DNA of 11,943 nt from an uncultured bacterium. GTDB taxonomy: Bacteria > Bacillota_I > Bacilli_A > RF39 > UBA660. This document shows positions 2,289 to 11,943 of this stretch, piece by piece (position 1 is the stretch's first letter; the number at the start of each line of letters is the position of its first letter). Where the stretch lies: assembly GCA_947169285.1 (NCBI GenBank), contig CAMVPB010000016.1:1-11943 (forward strand), read 5' to 3'. A program made the translations under genes and the position numbers. The notes beneath the pieces were generated by a model. That model did not search any database. It was not told the origin of the DNA and saw nothing but the letters and a program-made list of their open reading frames with translations.

Positions 2289-2394
2289 TCTTGGTTGTTC
2301 TACACAACTCAGATTCGTACCAAGAGGAAATCTGCTCGAACTTTTATAGTTTGAGCTCGATAAATGACTAATTCAGAAATGGATTAGTTTTTTT
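2289..2394 (+). promoter_or_regulatory. Candidate structured 5' leader or small RNA (class not recognised)
   Basis: Helices read by eye: TCTTGGT (2289-2295) with ACCAAGA (2319-2325); CAGATT (2310-2315) with AATCTG (2329-2334), which crosses the first helix in pseudoknot topology; GCTCGAAC (2334-2341) with GTTTGAGC (2349-2356), 8 bp including one G:U; and a terminal hairpin with a U-run. I found no match to any riboswitch consensus I can recall. Confidence 0.25.
2367..2394 (+). terminator. Weak intrinsic terminator or attenuator candidate
   Basis: ACTAAT (2367-2372) pairs with ATTAGT (2383-2388) across a 10-nt loop, followed by T-run 2389-2394. The stem is only 6 bp and AU-rich. Confidence 0.3.
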
Positions 2395-2432
2395 GTTATT
2401 ATGAAAAAACGTCCAGGAAAGGATGTGTTTCT

Positions 2433-2705
2433 ATGTTAAATATTGTTAAAGAAGAATTGCCTATTGAAGAGAGTCTAAAAAATAAAATCAATCTTATATG
2501 TGAATTTGCTCATGTGAAGCCTATATTTATTAATGGTAATATAAGAAAAATTAATAAAACCAATTTAGTTTATATTGAACCAAATAGAGTAATTGTTAAA
2601 GATAAAACTCTTCTTATATTTAATTATTCTAATGAAGTATTTATTGAAAATTTATCCAATAAATTAAAATTATCTGATTTAGAAGATTATTTGAAAAAGT
2701 GCTAG
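2433..2705 (+). CDS. Hypothetical 90-aa protein
   Basis: The ORF has AGGAAAGGA (2415-2423) 9 nt upstream of its ATG. I recognise no motifs. It sits directly upstream of the serine recombinase, so a role as a regulator or recombination directionality factor is conceivable but unsupported. Confidence 0.6.
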   Translation: MLNIVKEELPIEESLKNKINLICEFAHVKPIFINGNIRKINKTNLVYIEPNRVIVKDKTLLIFNYSNEVFIENLSNKLKLSDLEDYLKKC

Positions 2706-2709
2706 ACTA

Positions 2710-2738
2710 TTGACTTTAAAAGAAAAATTGTATATTAT
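2710..2738 (+). promoter_or_regulatory. Sigma-A type promoter candidate for the sORF and recombinase transcript
   Basis: TTGACT (2710-2715), a 17-nt spacer, then TATTAT (2733-2738), immediately after the stop codon of the 90-aa ORF. Confidence 0.45.
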
Positions 2739-2782
2739 AAATAACCATCAAAGAGAGTACCCTTAAGAAATGGAGGTACATC

Positions 2783-4748
<1,966 letters not shown>

Positions 4749-4761
4749 ATTATGAAAATAA

Positions 4762-4854
4762 TGCTCCCACAGAATTTTTAAAAAAATTGAAAACGGGAGC
4801 ATTTATTTCTTTTGAATAAAGGGATTCTTTGATTTGTAAAGCTCTGTGGGAGCA
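4762..4854. repeat. Perfect 12-bp inverted repeat pair flanking 69 bp
   Basis: TGCTCCCACAGA (4762-4773) is the exact reverse complement of TCTGTGGGAGCA (4843-4854). The GGGAGCA core also occurs at 4795-4801 and 4972-4978. Confidence 0.7.
4764..4813 (+). terminator. Possible terminator of the recombinase gene
   Basis: GCTCCC (4764-4769) pairs with GGGAGC (4795-4800). An inner AATTTTT/AAAAATT pairing may extend the stem. The T-rich tail ATTTATTTCTTTT follows at 4801-4813. The loop and internal bulges are large, so this call is uncertain. Confidence 0.3.
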
Positions 4855-4876
4855 ATTTTGCAAGTGCAAAATAAGT

Positions 4877-4926
4877 GGTGTCATAAAAATATATGTATTT
4901 CCTAGAAATATTTATATTTTGACACC
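4877..4926. promoter_or_regulatory. 50-bp imperfect palindrome (operator or serine-recombinase att-site candidate)
   Basis: The outer arms GGTGTCA (4877-4883) and TGACACC (4920-4926) are perfect complements. The inner blocks AAAA, TATA and TATTTC/GAAATA also pair, with two 1-nt offsets. The core is ATTTC-CTA-GAAAT (4897-4909). The right arm overlaps the -35 element of the promoter listed next. Confidence 0.5.
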
Positions 4927-4947
4927 TCATACTTATCCTGATATAAA
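4919..4947 (+). promoter_or_regulatory. Near-consensus sigma-A promoter with an extended -10 (distal operon promoter)
   Basis: TTGACA (4919-4924), a 17-nt spacer, then TATAAA (4942-4947). TG at 4939-4940 gives a TGnTATAAA extended -10. Confidence 0.55.
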
Positions 4948-5039
4948 AAAGTAATATTTTATGTATTCCATGGGAGCAAAAAAGTTGATTTTTAATTGTC
5001 TTATAATTCTTACAATATATGATAAACATTCAAATTTTA

Positions 5040-5068
5040 TTTACTTTTAAGTTTTTATATGATATAAT
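5040..5068 (+). promoter_or_regulatory. Second (proximal) promoter candidate
   Basis: TTTACT (5040-5045), a 17-nt spacer, then TATAAT (5063-5068), with TG at 5060-5061 giving an extended -10. It would produce a leader of about 22 nt before the ATG at 5097. Confidence 0.4.
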
Positions 5069-5096
5069 AAATGGCAATTTTGATAAGGGGTGTTTT

Positions 5097-6983
5097 ATGG
5101 GCTTGGATGCTGAAGATTTTATTATTAGTTTGCTTGCACCAGAAGAGATTTGGGGAGTAAATAAATTAGAACCATTAAAAAATTTTGGATTATATACTAG
5201 AGTAACTGATCTATGTGTATTAACTGGTGCAAAAGTTTTCGAAGGCCAGGGTCCCATAGGACTAGATGGCTGCTGGGTTTATACTACTGAAATCTGTGGA
5301 AGAAATGTAACAGCAATTTCACCAGATCAAAAAGTAACAACTGGAAACCAAAGCGATAATAGTGGAGTTATTCGTCCGATATTAAACTGTAAGCAAGACG
5401 TATTTAAAAAAATAACAAGCGGAGCATATTATATCGGAGTTGGTGTAAAAGAAGTTGAATTTGGATGCTATCCAGATTGCGCAGTAGATTGGAATTTACA
5501 GTTAGAACTTGAAAACGAGTTTAAGTGGAATGGATTAACATCATCTGGAAGACAATTTTCAAAGGCTGATTATCCGCCTGTTATATGGAAAGAATACGAA
5601 TATAAGGGATCGCAATATGTTAGAGTCGAATCAAATGCTAATACTTCAATATTTACACTATCCAATGGCGAAATATATTCAAATGGAGACTATGTGTGGT
5701 TGAAAGTTTTACCAATTAGATGGTTAGTAGATGAAGAAAGTCAAACTCTTATTTGTAAAGCCGGATTGATATCAGGTATTGCAGTTACTCCTGCTAGTTC
5801 TTCTATTTATTCATTTAGTTATTCTGATATTCAATACTTTCTCAAAATAGTGTTTTTACCTGAATTGTTAAAAAATATTTCTTTATTAGGAAACAAAGTA
5901 GTTGATTCACATCCTGAAAAGAAAGAAGAACCACTTCCAAGTAAAACAAAAAAATCAAGAAACCCATATGGATTTAGTATGAGTAATGTGAGTGAAGAAG
6001 ATATAATAAGAGGATGTATAGAAAGTAATCTATCTGTATTTTTACATGGACCATCTTCTGAAGGTAAGAGTGCAAGAGTAAAACAAATAGATCCAGACTG
6101 TGAAATTATATATCTAAGAAATGCAAGCCCAGAGAGTTTAAATGGCAAAAGCGTTTATAATCAAACAACTGGAGAAATGATAGATGTAAAACCAACATGG
6201 TTAATTAGATTAGAAGAAAAATGTAAAAAAGAACCAAATAAGAAACATATATTGTTCTTTGATGAAATAACAAATGCACTTCCTAGTATTCAAGGTATAG
6301 CATTCAATATAGTTTTAGATAAAGAAGTAAATGGAAAATGGAAATTACCAGATAATGCAAGAATAGTTGCAGCAGGAAATGAAATGAAAGATTCATTATC
6401 AGCAAATCAATTAGCAGAACCATTATTTAATAGATTTGCACATGTATATATAAAAACTACTACTGAAAGTTGGTTAAAGTGGGCAAGTGAGAATGATATA
6501 CATCCGGCAATATATTCATATATAGCATACAAAAAAGGAGAGGCTCTAAGAAGTAAGTATGACGGAAAGAAACCAAATGCAGATCCAAGAAAATGGGAGA
6601 TGGCATCAAAGATGTTATATAGTACACAAAACCCACAAATGTTAAGATCATTAATAGGAGAAGACATAACAAGAGAGTTTGTAGAGTTTTGTAACCAAAG
6701 AGTAATAACAATAGAAGATGTAGTGAATGAAAACTATACAGATAAAGATATCGAAGAATTAAACACATCGGAAAGATATGCAACAACAATGGGGTTATCA
6801 CAAGTAGATGAAACTAACTTAGAAAAAGTAAGAGAATTTGTAAGCAAGATAGGAGCAGAGTTCACATCAATGTTTGATTTATTATGGACACATAATGATG
6901 AGGCAAGATTAGAAAAGATAGCTGAATTAAATGCTTCTAATGAACAAGCAAAGATGTTAATAAAGGGGGGGAAATTAAAATGA
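5097..6983 (+). CDS. Paralogue 1: divergent ~288-aa N-terminal domain fused to a MoxR/AAA_5-like AAA+ ATPase
   Basis: I chose the start at ATG 5097, with SD AAGGGG (5085-5090) 6 nt upstream, rather than the ORF-track ATG at 5019. ATPase motifs are Walker A GPSSEGKS (6048-6071), Walker B ILFFDE (6249-6266), sensor-1-like RIVAAGNE, and LAEPLFNRF, which is analogous to the MoxR LxxxLDRF motif. A helical C-terminal region of about 170 aa follows. Confidence 0.9.
   Translation: MGLDAEDFIISLLAPEEIWGVNKLEPLKNFGLYTRVTDLCVLTGAKVFEGQGPIGLDGCWVYTTEICGRNVTAISPDQKVTTGNQSDNSGVIRPILNCKQDVFKKITSGAYYIGVGVKEVEFGCYPDCAVDWNLQLELENEFKWNGLTSSGRQFSKADYPPVIWKEYEYKGSQYVRVESNANTSIFTLSNGEIYSNGDYVWLKVLPIRWLVDEESQTLICKAGLISGIAVTPASSSIYSFSYSDIQYFLKIVFLPELLKNISLLGNKVVDSHPEKKEEPLPSKTKKSRNPYGFSMSNVSEEDIIRGCIESNLSVFLHGPSSEGKSARVKQIDPDCEIIYLRNASPESLNGKSVYNQTTGEMIDVKPTWLIRLEEKCKKEPNKKHILFFDEITNALPSIQGIAFNIVLDKEVNGKWKLPDNARIVAAGNEMKDSLSANQLAEPLFNRFAHVYIKTTTESWLKWASENDIHPAIYSYIAYKKGEALRSKYDGKKPNADPRKWEMASKMLYSTQNPQMLRSLIGEDITREFVEFCNQRVITIEDVVNENYTDKDIEELNTSERYATTMGLSQVDETNLEKVREFVSKIGAEFTSMFDLLWTHNDEARLEKIAELNASNEQAKMLIKGGKLK
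5961..6113 (+). repeat. Direct repeat copy 1 (junction and Walker A region of paralogue 1)
   Basis: 5991-6097 is identical at all 107 nt to 11821-11927. There is one mismatch at 6098 versus 11928, then 15 more identical nt up to the window end. The preceding 30 nt (5961-5990) have 7 mismatches. Confidence 0.95.
6965..6971 (+). other. G7 homopolymer: SD for paralogue 2 and a potential slippery or phase-variable site
   Basis: GGGGGGG lies within the last codons of paralogue 1 (AAG GGG GGG AAA TTA AAA TGA) and ends 8 nt upstream of the ATG at 6980. A G7 run is conspicuous in DNA this AT-rich. Confidence 0.8.
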
Positions 6984-9031
6984 AATATCCAGATGTAAGT
7001 TTATTATCTATGGATCAGATATATGATGATGATTTAAGATTTATTAAAAGATATGGGTCAAGGTGTTCTGCCACTGATTTTGCAATACTTTTAGGGATTG
7101 CTATATCATCTAATAAATTTTTTGATGATGTAGAATCACTAGAAAATAGGACGGTTGATTGGTGGATTGAATCTGATAAACCAGCATATGTGGATTCGGA
7201 TAGTGCAGACGTATTATATGGTGGGGATGGCTGGGATAATGTAACTGGAGGACGTCCGGTTGTACAGTTTTCTCAGATTTCAGATAAGTTAATATCTAAA
7301 AAATATTCTGATGGAGTTTTAGAAGTTGAATATGGTATGTATCCTCAAAGTGCAGTAAATTTTCATTTGAATAAAAAATTAGAAGAATTATATAATGCGA
7401 ATGCACTTAGCAAAGTGTTTTCAACTGAATCACTTGTAAAAACAGGTGATACTTATATTGTCGACGCTCAAGCTGGATATGATAATGAAAAGAATTTTGC
7501 TCCTGAATATCTTGAGGAGTATCAATATTTAAACTTTAAATATGTTCGTATTATTCCACATGCAGAACCAGATGGAGATATTTTGTCTAATGGGGTAACT
7601 CTTAGAGAAGGTAAACCGATTTGGGTAAAAGTTGAACCAATAACATGGTTAGTAGATGAAAATGCAGATATAGCAGTAGCTAAGAAAGTATTATTCTCTG
7701 GTGTAAGATTTTTAGATTTTCCATATAAGTATGAAAGCTTTGATAAAACACGTATAAATAAGTTTTTAAATGAATGCTTTATACGCGACATAAATCAAAG
7801 CCAAAAAAATTCTAGAGAAATTTTAATAGGTAATAGTAATAGGAATAAGTTAAGAAAAACAAACCCATATAAATTCAGTTTTGATGAAGTTACTGAAGAA
7901 AATATAATAAGAGGTATGGTAGAAAGTAATATTGCTGTGTTTTTGCATGGTAGATCAAGTGATGGTAAATCAGCTAGAGTAAAACAAATGGATCCAAATT
8001 GTGAAATTATATATTTAAGGAATGCAACACCAGAAAGTTTAAATGGTAAAAGTGTTTATAATCAAACAACTGGAGAAATGATAGATATTAAACCAACATG
8101 GTTAACTAAATTAGAAGATAAATGTGAGAAAGAACCCGATAAAATACATATATTATTCTTTGATGAACTTACTAATGCATTACCTTCAATTCAAGGCATG
8201 GCATTCAACATAGTATTAGATGGTGAAGTAAATGGTAAATGGAAGTTGCCAAAAAACGCAAGAATAGTAGCAGCTGGTAATGATTTAAATGATTCACTTG
8301 CAGCAAACCAAATGGCAGAACCATTATTCAATAGATTTGCTCATGTTTATATTAATACAACACCATCTAGCTGGTTATTATGGGCATCTACACCAACTAA
8401 TAATTATGAAATGATAGATTATAAAGAAGAAGAGTTACCATTAAAAATACATCCATCTATATATGCTTATATATCTTGTAAATCATTTGGTGGAAGGGAT
8501 GTTTTAAGAACAACATATGATGGAAAGAAGCCAAATGCAGATCCAAGAAAATGGGAGATGGCTTCAAAGGTATTATATAAAACTGGAAAACCAGAAATGT
8601 TAAGAGCATTAATAGGTGAACCATTAACAAAAGAATTTGTTGAATTTACTAAACAACAAGTCTTAACTTTAGATGATGTGTTAAAAGGAAATTATGATGA
8701 TGAAGAATTAGAAGAAATGGATACTTCTCAAAAATTTTTAATGATTGCAGTATTATCTGCAGTCGATGAAGAACATTTTGAAATAGCAAGAAATTTTATG
8801 AGTAAACTTGGAGAAGAACCAAGAGCTGTTTTTGACTCATTATGGACACATGGAGATGAAAAAAGATTAGAAAAACTTGCTGAAGTTAAAATGACAGAAG
8901 AACCAAAAATAATGTCAAAAGAATTACCGAAAAAAGAAAAAGAAAAAAGTACTCGTGACTGCTATGTAATTTATGGTAATCATGATTCTATTTATAATGA
9001 TACTTTTCATGTAAAGAAATTAAAAATATAA
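6980..9031 (+). CDS. Paralogue 2: divergent ~294-aa N-terminal domain fused to a MoxR/AAA_5-like AAA+ ATPase
   Basis: It overlaps paralogue 1 by 4 nt (ATGA, 6980-6983). ATPase motifs are Walker A GRSSDGKS (7949-7972), Walker B ILFFDE, RIVAAGND and LFNRF. From NPYKF onward it aligns with paralogue 1. It carries an insertion of about 15 aa (TPTNNYEMIDYKEEELPLK) and a longer K/E-rich C-terminal tail. Confidence 0.9.
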   Translation: MKYPDVSLLSMDQIYDDDLRFIKRYGSRCSATDFAILLGIAISSNKFFDDVESLENRTVDWWIESDKPAYVDSDSADVLYGGDGWDNVTGGRPVVQFSQISDKLISKKYSDGVLEVEYGMYPQSAVNFHLNKKLEELYNANALSKVFSTESLVKTGDTYIVDAQAGYDNEKNFAPEYLEEYQYLNFKYVRIIPHAEPDGDILSNGVTLREGKPIWVKVEPITWLVDENADIAVAKKVLFSGVRFLDFPYKYESFDKTRINKFLNECFIRDINQSQKNSREILIGNSNRNKLRKTNPYKFSFDEVTEENIIRGMVESNIAVFLHGRSSDGKSARVKQMDPNCEIIYLRNATPESLNGKSVYNQTTGEMIDIKPTWLTKLEDKCEKEPDKIHILFFDELTNALPSIQGMAFNIVLDGEVNGKWKLPKNARIVAAGNDLNDSLAANQMAEPLFNRFAHVYINTTPSSWLLWASTPTNNYEMIDYKEEELPLKIHPSIYAYISCKSFGGRDVLRTTYDGKKPNADPRKWEMASKVLYKTGKPEMLRALIGEPLTKEFVEFTKQQVLTLDDVLKGNYDDEELEEMDTSQKFLMIAVLSAVDEEHFEIARNFMSKLGEEPRAVFDSLWTHGDEKRLEKLAEVKMTEEPKIMSKELPKKEKEKSTRDCYVIYGNHDSIYNDTFHVKKLKI

Positions 9032-9047
9032 AAAGGGGAATTTAAAT

Positions 9048-9437
9048 ATGAAAGATAAAAAGGAATTATTATTCTCATATATTAAAACTAATGTTGCTCC
9101 AATATTAGTAGATTTTATATCTTCTGAAGATTTAAGAAATGTAACAATATTACCTGCTAATATCGATTCTAAAGAATTGAATGGACATTATGAAGATATA
9201 AATTTTATGCCACCATATTGGTTTAATGAATTATTAAATAAGAACAATAAAATATTAGTTATTGATAGAATCGATTCAATTGATAAAGAAGAACAATTAA
9301 AATTTGTTGAATTATTAAAATATAGAAAAATATCTACTTTTGAATTACCAAGTGATTGTGTAATTATTATTACTGCTAGTGAAATAAATAATAATACTAT
9401 AAATGAAGAGATATTTTCATTAGTGGCTAGTATATAG
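9048..9437 (+). CDS. 129-aa degenerate (P-loop-less) copy of the paralogue ATPase core
   Basis: The SD GGGG (9035-9038) precedes the start. It aligns by eye to paralogue 1 as follows. ILVDFISSEDLR corresponds to VFLHGPSSEGKS, so the Walker A Gly and Lys are lost. DSKELNG corresponds to SPESLNG. PPYWFNELLNK corresponds to KPTWLIRLEEK. KILVIDRIDS corresponds to HILFFDEITN, so Walker B DE becomes DR. CVIIITASE corresponds to ARIVAAGNE. EEIFSLVA corresponds to EPLFNRFA, so the Arg is lost. Confidence 0.8.
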   Translation: MKDKKELLFSYIKTNVAPILVDFISSEDLRNVTILPANIDSKELNGHYEDINFMPPYWFNELLNKNNKILVIDRIDSIDKEEQLKFVELLKYRKISTFELPSDCVIIITASEINNNTINEEIFSLVASI

Positions 9438-9444
9438 GTGAGTT

Positions 9445-10917
9445 ATGAAATACGATATAGAAGCTTTAAAAAGAAAAATGTTAGTTAAATATCCATTCTT
9501 TGGAAGTGTTGTAGCAAATGTGGAATATAAAGAAAAAAATGATATAGAAACAGCCGCAACAGATGGAGAAGTTATTTATTACAACACAGATTTTTTACAA
9601 TCATTAAGTGTTGATGAACAGACTTTTGTTTTTGCGCATGAAGTGTGTCATATTGCTTTTAATCATATTTTAAGAAGTGAAGGAAAAAATCATAAATTAT
9701 GGAATATCGCAACTGATGGTGTTATAAATCAATTTTTAAAAAAGGATGGATTATCAATTCCACAAGGTGGAGTTGATATACCAGAAGCAATTAATTATGA
9801 TGCTGAGAAACTATATGAAAAATTATTAAAAGAACATCAACAAAATCAACAAAATAATCAATCTAGTAATCAAAATAGTAGTAATAATAACCAAGGCAGT
9901 TCTTCTAGTCAAAGTACAAGTGAGAACAATTCGCAAAGTCAACAATCTTCTAGTAGTTCAAATGAATCCAATAATAATTCAAACGATTCTAAAGAAAATT
10001 CACAAAGCAAAGATAGAGAAGGATCTAGTCAATCAAAAGAAGAAAACAAAGAGAAAAATGCTGGGCATGATAGTCATAGCATGTGGGATGATGCTGTAAA
10101 GAGAAGCAAAGAAAAACAAAAAAAATCTAAAGAAAGCAAAGATTCGAAGAAAAACAATGATAATTCTAAAGAATCAAAAGCAAAATCAGAAATTGAGAAG
10201 AAACAAGAGGAACTTGAAAAAATGGGTGAAAAAGATGCTTTTGATAAAAACCGTGAGGAAAAGAAAAAAGAATTAGAAAGACTAAAAGAAGAGTTATCTA
10301 GAAAAGCATCTCAAGCAGGAACTACAAGTAATGGTAATGTTAGAGAAGTTGGTAATATTGGTAATGCTAAACCATTAATTGATTGGAGATATGTTTTAAA
10401 AGAAACAATAAAATATGATGTTGATTGGTCTTATAGGAATGCAATGGTAGAAGATGGTGTTGTAATGGCTAATCTTGAAGAAATACCTATGCCTGAAACT
10501 GAAATAGTTTTAGATACTAGTGAATCTGTTAGTGTAACATTATTAAAAAACTTCTTAAAAGAATGTAAAAATATATTAAAGCATTCAAAATTAAAAGTTG
10601 GATGTTTTGATACAGAGTTCTATGGATTTACAGAAATAAGAACAGAAGAAGATATAGATAACATGAGATTTGAGGGAAATGGTGGTACTAATTTTAATAC
10701 TGCTGTTAACGCTTTTTCAAATCGTGTTGAAAATAAAATAATATTTACAGATGGTTACGCACCAATGCCAAAAAAAGCTATAGATGCAGTATGGCTTGTG
10801 TATGGTGATCGCAAAATACAACCACCTGGTGGTAAAGTGATTTATATCACTAGTGAGCAATTAAATAAACTTTATTCATTTAAAGATGATATTAAAAAAT
10901 TAACAAGGAAATTATAA
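9445..10917 (+). CDS. HExxH metallopeptidase-like N-domain, ~160-aa low-complexity linker, and C-terminal VWA domain with MIDAS
   Basis: HEVCH lies at nt 9637-9651 in the context FVFAHEVCHIAFNHI. An S/N/Q-rich then K/E-rich linker spans about nt 9835-10315. The MIDAS DxSxS motif is DTSES at 10513-10527, followed by GGTNF and IIFTDGY. The architecture matches what I recall as the Pfam DUF2201_N plus VWA-like DUF2201 family, which is typically encoded beside AAA_5 ATPases. This needs HMM confirmation. Confidence 0.9.
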   Translation: MKYDIEALKRKMLVKYPFFGSVVANVEYKEKNDIETAATDGEVIYYNTDFLQSLSVDEQTFVFAHEVCHIAFNHILRSEGKNHKLWNIATDGVINQFLKKDGLSIPQGGVDIPEAINYDAEKLYEKLLKEHQQNQQNNQSSNQNSSNNNQGSSSSQSTSENNSQSQQSSSSSNESNNNSNDSKENSQSKDREGSSQSKEENKEKNAGHDSHSMWDDAVKRSKEKQKKSKESKDSKKNNDNSKESKAKSEIEKKQEELEKMGEKDAFDKNREEKKKELERLKEELSRKASQAGTTSNGNVREVGNIGNAKPLIDWRYVLKETIKYDVDWSYRNAMVEDGVVMANLEEIPMPETEIVLDTSESVSVTLLKNFLKECKNILKHSKLKVGCFDTEFYGFTEIRTEEDIDNMRFEGNGGTNFNTAVNAFSNRVENKIIFTDGYAPMPKKAIDAVWLVYGDRKIQPPGGKVIYITSEQLNKLYSFKDDIKKLTRKL

Positions 10918-10929
10918 GGGGAGGAAAAT

Positions 10930-11943
10930 ATGAGTATTACAATTAGAGAAGTTACATTACCAACAAAAGAACAAGTTTTTAAATCCGGTTTAGATATTTT
11001 TATGACTGGAAAAGACAGAATATGTTTATTGTCTGATTTTGCAATACTAATGGGTTCATGTACTTCTGAAAATCCAAATTTCTTTCCTATTAACAGTAAA
11101 ATAAATTGGTGGTATTGTTTATCAGAAAATGGAAATCGTTTTGGAAAGGTTCGTACAAGTGGTTCATACAGTACTACTTCATGTGATAAATCAAATGGTG
11201 GGATTAGACCTGTTTTAAAACTAAATTCACCTGTAATGCCTAATGAAGGTTATATTAATTCAGAGGGGTTAGTAGAAGTAGAATTTGGTGAATATCCACA
11301 ATTTGCTGTTGATCCATTCTTTGGTAATACTCTTTCAGAACAACTTATGCATGGTCATTTAAAAGAGACTGGTAAAACATATACTCAAAATGCTATTTTT
11401 TCTGTAAAGGGATTAAATGCATTTGATCCAAAAGTGATAAAAGAATATGAATATAAAGGTCATAAATACGTGGTAGCAATGTCAAATACGTTTAATGATG
11501 AGCAAAAACTATCAAATGGTATGACTGCTAAATGTGGCAGCTTACATTGGATAGAAGTTGCTCCGATAAAATGGATATATGACAGGAAGTCAATGGCATT
11601 GATAAGTAAAATTGCTCTTGCTTCTGGAATTAGGCCTACTGATTCTAATGGAAAGTATCATGGATATTTTAAAACTACCGAGATGTATAGTTTCTTAAAT
11701 GACTATTTTCTTAAAGAGATTGTCCATAATAAGAACAACTTAATAGAAAAGCAAGAAAGTATATCGCAGAATTCTTTTAATAGAAGAAGAAATCCATATG
11801 GATTTAACATAAACAATGTAAGTGAAGAAGATATAATAAGAGGATGTATAGAAAGTAATCTATCTGTATTTTTACATGGACCATCTTCTGAAGGTAAGAG
11901 TGCAAGAGTAAAACAAATAGATCCAGAATGTGAAATTATATAT
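10930..11943 (+). CDS. Paralogue 3 (5' partial, runs off the window): divergent ~287-aa N-terminal domain fused to the same ATPase module
   Basis: It is absent from the ORF track because it has no stop codon. I translated it by hand as 338 open codons from ATG 10930, with SD GGGGAGG (10918-10924) 5 nt upstream. The sequence runs MSITIREV...SDFAILMG...NWWYCLSE...GGIRPVL...VEFGEYPQFAV...KEYEYKG...PIKWIYD...NPYGFNINNVSEEDIIRGCIESNLSVFLHGPSSEGKSARVKQIDPECEIIY. Confidence 0.85.
   Translation, partial: MSITIREVTLPTKEQVFKSGLDIFMTGKDRICLLSDFAILMGSCTSENPNFFPINSKINWWYCLSENGNRFGKVRTSGSYSTTSCDKSNGGIRPVLKLNSPVMPNEGYINSEGLVEVEFGEYPQFAVDPFFGNTLSEQLMHGHLKETGKTYTQNAIFSVKGLNAFDPKVIKEYEYKGHKYVVAMSNTFNDEQKLSNGMTAKCGSLHWIEVAPIKWIYDRKSMALISKIALASGIRPTDSNGKYHGYFKTTEMYSFLNDYFLKEIVHNKNNLIEKQESISQNSFNRRRNPYGFNINNVSEEDIIRGCIESNLSVFLHGPSSEGKSARVKQIDPECEIIY
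11791..11943 (+). repeat. Direct repeat copy 2 (junction and Walker A region of paralogue 3)
   Basis: It lies at an offset of exactly 5830 nt from copy 1; see copy 1 for details. Its extent beyond 11943 is unknown. Confidence 0.95.

Follow-up and report, generated by a model that had tools for sequence, protein, structure and literature searches.

What would a bacterium gain from an operon in which several MoxR-like AAA+ ATPases, each preceded by a large N-terminal domain, are combined with a catalytically dead ATPase and with a metallopeptidase fused to a VWA domain? This question is raised by a stretch of 11,943 nucleotides (nt) from an uncultured bacterium of the GTDB lineage RF39/UBA660 (contig CAMVPB010000016.1 of assembly GCA_947169285.1), which comprises the entire source contig, has a G + C content of about 27% and is hereafter called the window. 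Open reading frame analysis assigns to its forward strand five co-directional and tightly packed genes named A, B, s, V and C, of which A, B and C code for the ATPases with their N-terminal domains ("heads"), s for the dead ATPase and V for the zincin-VWA protein. As set out below, the product of the operon is probably a cytoplasmic machine for recognition and remodelling, whose family is widespread in uncultured Bacilli and Clostridia of the gut, and for which conflict is the most likely setting. The main observation was made in relatives of the window, in which the head is the target of a diversity-generating retroelement (DGR).

Diversification of the head in related loci

Gut metagenomes are rich in full-length homologues (~640 aa) that consist of a head and an AAA module. 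When one genome per GTDB species was scanned, 179 encoding stretches were obtained, from which 75 loci were kept and annotated with phmmer; these stem from metagenome-assembled genomes titled uncultured Bacilli, 'Tenericutes', Clostridium sp. CAG:417 and Coprobacillus sp. CAG:605, as well as from some Clostridia. In 18 of the 75 loci, genes for a DGR reverse transcriptase (RT) of 339 aa and for an Avd-like protein of ~190 aa are located directly upstream of the head-AAA gene, and where at least 2.5 kb of upstream sequence is visible, which applies to 49 loci, the RT cassette is found in 16, i.e., in about a third. The RT matches RVT_1 (E 8e-19), is 42.5% identical to the DGR RT of phage nd12, also matches Bordetella and Faecalibacterium DGR phages, and carries LGNQSSQ, a motif typical of DGR enzymes. 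The match of the ~190-aa protein to bAvd-like is weak (E 0.01), yet it extends over the full length.

Between the Avd-like gene and the RT lies a template repeat (TR), an 80-100-nt copy of head codons ~72-105, and the mismatches between this TR and the variable repeat (VR) of the head fall almost only at adenines of the TR. In loci L001-L007 the two repeats are 100 nt long and differ at 10-12 positions, 9-12 of which are TR adenines, and the corresponding proportions are 12/12 in L011, 10/10 in L023, 14/14 in L034, 11/12 in L066 as well as in L040, 7/9 in L043 and 8/10 in L075. With respect to the proteins, 45 homologues that are at least 80% identical to P0035 have an entropy of 1.39 bits at aa 81-100 compared with at most 0.42 bits in all other full 20-residue blocks, and six tandem heads in L014 have near-identical flanks and differ within the VR. 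Common to DGR-linked heads is furthermore the element GTTCGCCCAGC at the 3' end of the VR. That the heads might act as sensors or specificity modules had already been proposed in an initial annotation made from the letters of the window alone, and this proposal is supported by the finding that in relatives a DGR hypermutates one loop of the same head.

In L044 (6338-15800), four head-AAA paralogues downstream of a single Avd-like/RT cassette have identical VR peptides, which points to a recent duplication or to assembly collapse and not to independent diversification. The VR of L040 (10216-10296) has a 1-nt insertion relative to the TR which splits the head-AAA gene into two frames, and which may reflect DGR activity inactivating its own target. 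The RT-less loci L014, L022, L026 and L030 keep the GC-rich GCTGTTCGCCCAGC element of the RT-linked variable repeats and may be targeted in trans by a DGR residing elsewhere in the genome.

Layout and components of the operon

Neither domain nor phmmer annotation revealed an RT in the window, and as candidates for a template repeat only chance matches of at most 13 nt to the three loops of A, B and C that are equivalent to the VR turned up (Table 1). These loops are dissimilar to one another in DNA, and the GTTCGCCCAGC element was not found in them. Between strains, in turn, they are conserved, since the loop of A is identical in the 98% identical orthologue P0001, and none of the 38 differences between C and its orthologue P0002 falls within aa 56-97. 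The heads of A, B and C share motifs and 29-34% identity and are therefore mutually homologous, so that the "differently headed" ATPases of the initial annotation carry diverged copies of one domain and not unrelated heads. Their AAA modules are 68% (A/B) to 93% (A vs. C type) identical, and the starts of these modules in A and C are 95% identical in DNA. Taken together, the lack of RT and TR, the strain-invariant loops, the divergence of the heads and the existence of contigs with and without the block indicate that the window represents a fixed array, variable between strains, in which three heads sit on near-identical motors.

One of these contigs, L088, is 97.7% identical to the window over positions 2315-6960 and diverges at 6960 (6436 in L088), i.e., in the last ~23 nt of A. 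It continues not with B-s-V-C but with two minus-strand genes without Pfam match, the products of which are a multi-pass membrane protein of 160 aa and a protein of 297 aa, and L084 from the same metagenome carries B-s-V-C at 92% identity. Two explanations fit these contigs, namely that the block is polymorphic for presence and absence, or that the near-identical AAA repeats led to an assembly join. Assembly GCA_016648615.1 was ruled out as a single genome; its contigs carry JAEEGL metagenome accessions.

In the relatives the gene order head-AAA, s, V is conserved, with V being found in 70 and s in 59 of the 75 loci; this three-gene block is thus kept across the species loci of gut Bacilli and Clostridia. 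At least two head-AAA genes are present in eight loci. L014 is arranged as HA HA s V HA HA s V HA H (HA, head-AAA; H, head), L044 has four copies, and L025 reads HA s V HA, an order also seen in the short contig L053; in view of these multi-head layouts, the HA HA s V HA arrangement of the window is a recurrent one. The number of head-AAA paralogues per locus ranges from 1 to at least 6. In the Clostridia-type branch (L056-L076) s is missing, and V overlaps or abuts the head-AAA gene. L082 (10001-16456; P0003, P0093) codes for an 895-aa head-AAA-head variant followed by a normal head-AAA, s and V, and this block lies between the ribosomal protein/rpoA/rplQ operon and ispH.

The head modelled on its own yields a confident structure (predicted local distance difference test, pLDDT, 82.4; predicted template modelling score, pTM, 0.84), in which the VR-equivalent loop is the only part of low confidence. 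Residues 225-276 of C match the start of the Pfam family DUF6273, at whose C-terminus DGR variable repeats have been described and whose fold has been called C-lectin-like (PMC10743442, PMC11792537). In a tandem-head protein, a DUF6273 match of 26.3 bits spans the junction of the two heads, and when C is artificially permuted, so that the part from aa 196 onwards precedes aa 1-112, it matches positions 7-171 of the 172 positions of DUF6273 with 23.6 bits (cut-off 23.5). Judging from these sequence comparisons, and with moderate confidence, the head would be a circularly permuted scaffold of the DUF6273 (C-lectin-like) type with a beta-rich insert of ~90 aa. A comparison of the head profile with the small target of nd12 by hhalign gave no similarity. 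The head is an autonomous module (proteins P0121-P0269) whose profile finds 2,557 representative clusters, many of them stand-alone proteins of 270-350 aa; others consist of tandem heads or of fusions to DUF4116 or ankyrin repeats, and P0196 matches, weakly and below the threshold, the BspA-type repeat LRR_5, the repeat family of another protein encoded in the window (see below).

The motifs of the ATPase are intact in A (GPSSEGKS, aa 318-325; ILFFDE, aa 385-390; IVAAGN, aa 423-428; LFNRF, aa 443-447) and in B (GRSSDGKS, ILFFDE, IVAAGN and LFNRF), and C shows GPSSEGKS as its Walker A before the contig ends. The Walker A, Walker B, sensor-1 and post-sensor-1 Arg motifs of A and B are invariant in 57 homologues. 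Pfam returns AAA_5 for A with 18.8 bits, below the cut-off of 22, and nothing for B, and a PDB sequence search with the AAA module gave no useful match. By tblastn, the AAA module is 25-31% identical to plasmid genes annotated as 'MoxR family ATPase', and the C-terminal half of an AlphaFold2 model of A (mean pLDDT 72.7) resembles NorQ, RavA and MCM, with Foldseek E-values of 1e-5 to 1e-6 (NorQ 9qhg, 9qh9 and 9qh8, root-mean-square deviation 3.8-4.4 Å over ~170 columns; RavA 6q7l; MCM). Both the MoxR-like nature of the modules and, in A and B, their intact motifs were therefore recognised correctly in the initial annotation.

The same applies to the remaining two proteins. In a profile-profile comparison by hhalign, s aligns with the AAA alpha/beta core at a probability of 89% and E 2e-6. 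It has lost the P-loop by deletion, the DE of Walker B is changed to DR and the sensor-1 Asn is missing; this match together with the lost catalytic residues sustains the claim of a 129-aa dead paralogue. V matches DUF2201_N (E 1e-36) and DUF2201 (E 1.1e-12) of Pfam, both above the gathering scores, and its motifs HEVCH (aa 65-69, nt 9637-9651), DTSES (aa 357-361, nt 10513-10527), GGT (aa 413-415) and FTDG (aa 434-437) are all kept in 62 homologues, which bears out an HExxH domain joined to a VWA domain with a complete MIDAS. A PDB sequence search with V gave a marginal match to the minimal zincin MJ1213 (E 0.09). Zincin and VWA are separated by a long, disordered low-complexity linker (aa ~130-300, window 9835-10350), first Q/N/S-rich and then K/E-rich, which varies among homologues and produces spurious 'tail fiber' and TolA matches. 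In many GenBank/RefSeq phage records the DUF2201 zincin-VWA protein is called 'HNH endonuclease', apparently after the label of PHROG 1314; no sequence support for an HNH nuclease was found in DUF2201/phrog_1314 proteins.

Genes A and B overlap by ATGA, and gaps of 16, 7 and 12 nt separate B from s, s from V and V from C, respectively. The tight packing on the plus strand, the G-rich Shine-Dalgarno sequences before all five starts and the serine recombinase beside the operon are thus as initially annotated. The start of A was placed at 5097 and not at the longest-ORF (open reading frame) start 5019 because P0001 begins with MGLDAEDF. P0002 has a full length of 624 aa, and both orthologues are intact. 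Behind the C orthologue of L081, the closest relative, comes an unrelated 114-aa gene without Pfam match. A strong, palindrome-overlapped promoter that had been proposed at about 4870 was discarded as evidence, as the interval 4700-5150 contains 4 promoter-like sites compared to 3.5 expected in shuffles of this AT-rich spacer.

Table 1. Coordinates of the operon and of neighbouring features in the window
Feature	Position (nt)	Strand	Description
Gene A, 628 aa	5097..6983	+	Head aa 1-288 (nt 5097-5960) and MoxR-like AAA+ module (nt 5961-6983); phrog_1297 E 2.8e-53
VR-equivalent loop of A, aa 60-96 (WVY...VIRPI)	5274..5384	+	Aligns with the verified VR of P0035/L001
Gene B, 683 aa	6980..9031	+	Head (nt 6980-7861) and AAA+ module (nt 7862-9031); phrog_1297 E 1.1e-38
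VR-equivalent loop of B	~7160-7261	+	Within the head
Gene s, 129 aa	9048..9437	+	Degenerate AAA alpha/beta core; no lid domain; phrog_1297 E 0.003
Gene V, 490 aa	9445..10917	+	N-terminal zincin, low-complexity linker, C-terminal VWA with MIDAS; phrog_1314 E 8.5e-66
Gene C, 338 aa up to contig end	10930..11943	+	Head and start of AAA module
VR-equivalent loop of C	11107-11214	+	Within the head
Best sigma-70-like match upstream of A	5040..5068	+	TTTACT-17-TATAAT with TG; weak evidence
Large serine recombinase	2895..4748	+	Resolvase, Recombinase and Zn_ribbon_recom domains; phrog_95 integrase; context, not shown to be part of the system

Four copies of the heptamer GGGAGCA lie in the spacer that separates the recombinase gene from A, at 4762 on the minus strand and at 4795, 4848 and 4972 on the plus strand, where 0.23 would be expected in the whole window and none of 200 shuffles reached four. 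Copies one and two make up a hairpin (4754-4809) located just past the stop of the recombinase gene, and operators, recombinase sites or a terminator are conceivable functions of the four sites. Upstream of the recombinase, positions 180-2174 code for a 664-aa BspA-type leucine-rich repeat (LRR) protein (LRR_5, E 2.2e-9). Rfam and tRNA scans of the window were empty, and NCBIfam gave nothing useful for its proteins beyond the recombinase.

Proposed mechanism and rival explanations

According to the proposed mechanism, the heads of A, B and C would capture a variable protein or another ligand. The ATPases would form a ring, possibly a mixed one of A, B and C if the paralogues co-assemble, in which s would be a non-catalytic subunit or regulator and presumably modulates the ring. 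MoxR ATPase rings work together with the VWA/MIDAS domain of a partner, as in NorQ-NorD, and the ring would engage V in the same way; ATP-driven remodelling would then present the captured target to the metallopeptidase, or switch the peptidase on. The setting would be a conflict with phages or other invaders, with the paralogue array serving as a hard-wired substitute for DGR diversity. A role in conflict is the most economical reading of three features taken together, i.e., hypermutation, variation in copy number and variation in presence or absence, and by analogy it parallels published proposals for DGR-linked MoxR-vWA systems (PMC7159879, PMC10907252). A bolder version, which is put forward only tentatively, sees in the operon a cytoplasmic, antigen-receptor-like immune machine of reduced-genome gut Bacilli, in which the receptor, a lectin-type variable head, would be fused to its ATPase transducer and coupled to a zincin-VWA effector, and in which receptor diversity would be generated interchangeably, either by phage-derived DGR hypermutation or, as in the window, by a hard-wired array of diverged head paralogues with a common motor type, possibly in mixed rings.

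Several points weigh against a sensor operating in conflict. MoxR ATPases are best known as maturation chaperones and not as immune switches. The window itself has no DGR feature, so that the reading of the heads as sensors has to be borrowed from relatives with 55-63% identity. The link of the head to DUF6273 barely reaches the threshold, and does so only after artificial permutation; the head matches the tentaclin of nd12 weakly, with E 0.0013 and a probability of 19%, and the head model has no significant Foldseek match in PDB or BFVD (none with E<0.05), so that a C-lectin fold is not demonstrated structurally. No known-system model links the family to defence: PADLOC v2, which the initial annotation had suggested as a check, matched none of the 8 window proteins at E <= 0.01. 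Amongst 150 flanking genes from 20 species loci, finally, there is no clear defence island, and only three cytosine methylases point to defence. The initial annotation, for its part, had named three outcomes that would speak against it, namely homologous blocks lying consistently in phage or metabolic chaperone modules, an already named system, and a cloned operon without effect on mobile elements; none of them was encountered outright.

The rival explanation that survives best, and is nevertheless rather unlikely, is a housekeeping maturation chaperone of the NorQ-NorD, CbbQ-CbbO or RavA-ViaA type, in which the heads are adaptors for a few fixed clients and V inserts a cofactor into these or processes them. 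The pairing of MoxR and VWA, the NorQ-like fold and the conservation of the window's loops between strains agree with it, as does the finding that the flanking genes are mostly housekeeping genes (ABC transporters, helix-turn-helix regulators, GNAT acetyltransferases, tRNA synthetases, RuvAB, TsaD), one locus being situated between rplQ and ispH/ligA. However, DGR hypermutation of the heads in relatives and a paralogue number as variable as that described above are hard to square with fixed clients. Nor does any conserved client gene accompany the system across loci, and B-s-V-C is missing after A in L088.

A phage or mobile-element module, i.e., a chaperone-protease for the assembly of a virion or element, has a slim chance of being correct. 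Its attraction lies in the strong matches to phrog_1297 and phrog_1314 (Table 1), in the presence of V-like proteins in 480 phage records, many of them N4-like, in the role in virion assembly proposed for the jumbo-phage pair (PMC7824862), in the similarity of the relatives' RT, which is closest to RTs of gut-phage DGRs, and in the serine recombinase adjoining the operon. The recombinase also adjoins A in L088, but amongst the 75 other loci L019 is the only one with a recombinase close to the system, which makes 2/76 with the window. Moreover, a relative of the head-bearing ATPase is encoded by 1 contig out of 2.9 million in IMG/VR vs. the 179 genome stretches, neither the head (tblastn) nor the window DNA (megablast) has a match in 50,697 phage records, and there are no phage structural genes amongst the 150 flanking genes. 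The homologous blocks thus lie mostly amid housekeeping genes and not in a phage morphogenesis module.

Slimmer still is the chance that the operon serves interaction with the host or other cells, with heads binding extracellular ligands and the ATPase and VWA proteins acting in export or surface assembly. The cellular DGR targets described so far are mostly surface proteins (bioRxiv 10.1101/2020.04.01.020958), the hosts belong to the gut Bacilli and have reduced genomes, and a BspA-type LRR protein is encoded upstream in the window, to which the LRR_5 match of P0196 may be added. Against this, inspection of the translations, with no dedicated predictor being run, revealed no N-terminal signal peptide or membrane segment in A, B, C, s and V, and no secretion genes are linked to the system amongst the flanking genes. 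That the operon is a decaying remnant of a former DGR locus without current function is hardly credible, since the missing RT and template repeat of the window and the fragmentation of some relatives (L033, and L040 with its VR frameshift) are set against five intact reading frames with complete catalytic motifs and ribosome-binding sites, and against the intact orthologues P0001 and P0002.

If the operon does encode a recognition-and-remodelling machine with hypermutable heads, antigen sensors of this kind would be known not only from multicellular cyanobacteria and purple sulfur bacteria but also from small-genome Bacilli of the gut, which are abundant and uncultured. It would also provide a compact experimental case, as sensor and ATPase are united in one polypeptide, the zincin effector is recognisable, and natural variants are at hand that have or lack a DGR and whose number of heads runs from one to at least six; the alternative of DGR and paralogue array would make the generation of recognition diversity in bacteria directly testable. 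In addition, it offers a functional lead for DUF2201/PHROG 1314 and for the head domain of some 2,500 protein clusters.

Comparison with known systems

Full-text searches of the literature for DUF2201 and for DGRs together with MoxR, AAA/von Willebrand or gut ATPase gave no description of this architecture, and to this extent the operon is undescribed, as the initial annotation had suggested. The suggestion does not hold for its parts, however, as both the pair of a MoxR ATPase and a metallopeptidase-vWA protein (PHROG 1297/1314) and DGR-lectin vWA-MoxR systems have been described already.

The former was named in phages and proposed to function in virion assembly (Iyer et al. 2021, PMC7824862). 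It resembles the operon in that the same two families are adjacent and that V has the same HExxH and VWA architecture. In contrast to the phage dyad, the ATPase here has a variable N-terminal head of ~290 aa, a pseudo-AAA gene is located between the partners, several ATPase paralogues are present, and the context is cellular instead of consisting of phage morphogenesis genes.

In the vWA-MoxR conflict systems of cyanobacteria and gammaproteobacteria, lectin domains are diversified by DGRs (Kaur et al. 2020, PMC7159879; Dore et al. 2024, PMC10907252). Here the likeness comprises the whole set of a DGR-variable lectin-type domain, a MoxR ATPase, a vWA domain and a peptidase, and the published proposal follows the same logic, in which a sensor is variable, the ATPase is the transducer and a protease is the effector. 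However, the variable CLec/FGS domain of these systems is C-terminal and usually resides on the vWA protein, whereas here it is N-terminal and on the ATPase. Their VMAP protein carries a trypsin- or caspase-like effector, whereas here a zincin is fused to vWA; no Pfam hit to the VMAP domain was obtained for the five operon proteins, the third gene, s, being a pseudo-AAA. Finally, their hosts are multicellular, in contrast to the small-genome gut Bacilli considered here, and the window is devoid of a DGR.

With the tentaclins and other DUF6273 targets of gut-phage DGRs (PMC10743442; PMC11792537) the relatives of the window share, as mentioned above, a similar RT, and the nd12 cassette likewise consists of an RT directly followed by the target with a VR near its 5' end. 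In addition, a W-W...G-x-R-P signature flanks the VR, and there is the weak match to DUF6273. Unlike the head, however, tentaclins are phage receptor-binding proteins with Ig domains, and the domain considered here is apparently permuted, has a beta-rich insert of ~90 aa and is fused to an ATPase.

DGR-variable domains on AAA-type ATPases of reduced-genome bacteria appear also in the CLec-AAA fusions of candidate phyla radiation (CPR) bacteria that are cited in PMC10907252, and in the Midasin-like UVR4 targets (PMC5758913). They differ in RT clade and host phylum, and their available descriptions mention neither a zincin-vWA partner nor a pseudo-AAA.

NorQ-NorD, CbbQ-CbbO and RavA-ViaA, in turn, have the MoxR fold and an adjacent VWA partner with MIDAS in common with the operon, but they act on fixed clients and have neither a variable head nor a peptidase fused to VWA, nor do they form paralogue arrays. 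Thus, the components and the general logic are already known, and what appears to be new is their combination, i.e., a permuted lectin-type head at the N-terminus of a MoxR motor, a pseudo-AAA and a zincin-vWA protein, with DGR and paralogue array alternating between loci and with gut Bacilli as hosts.

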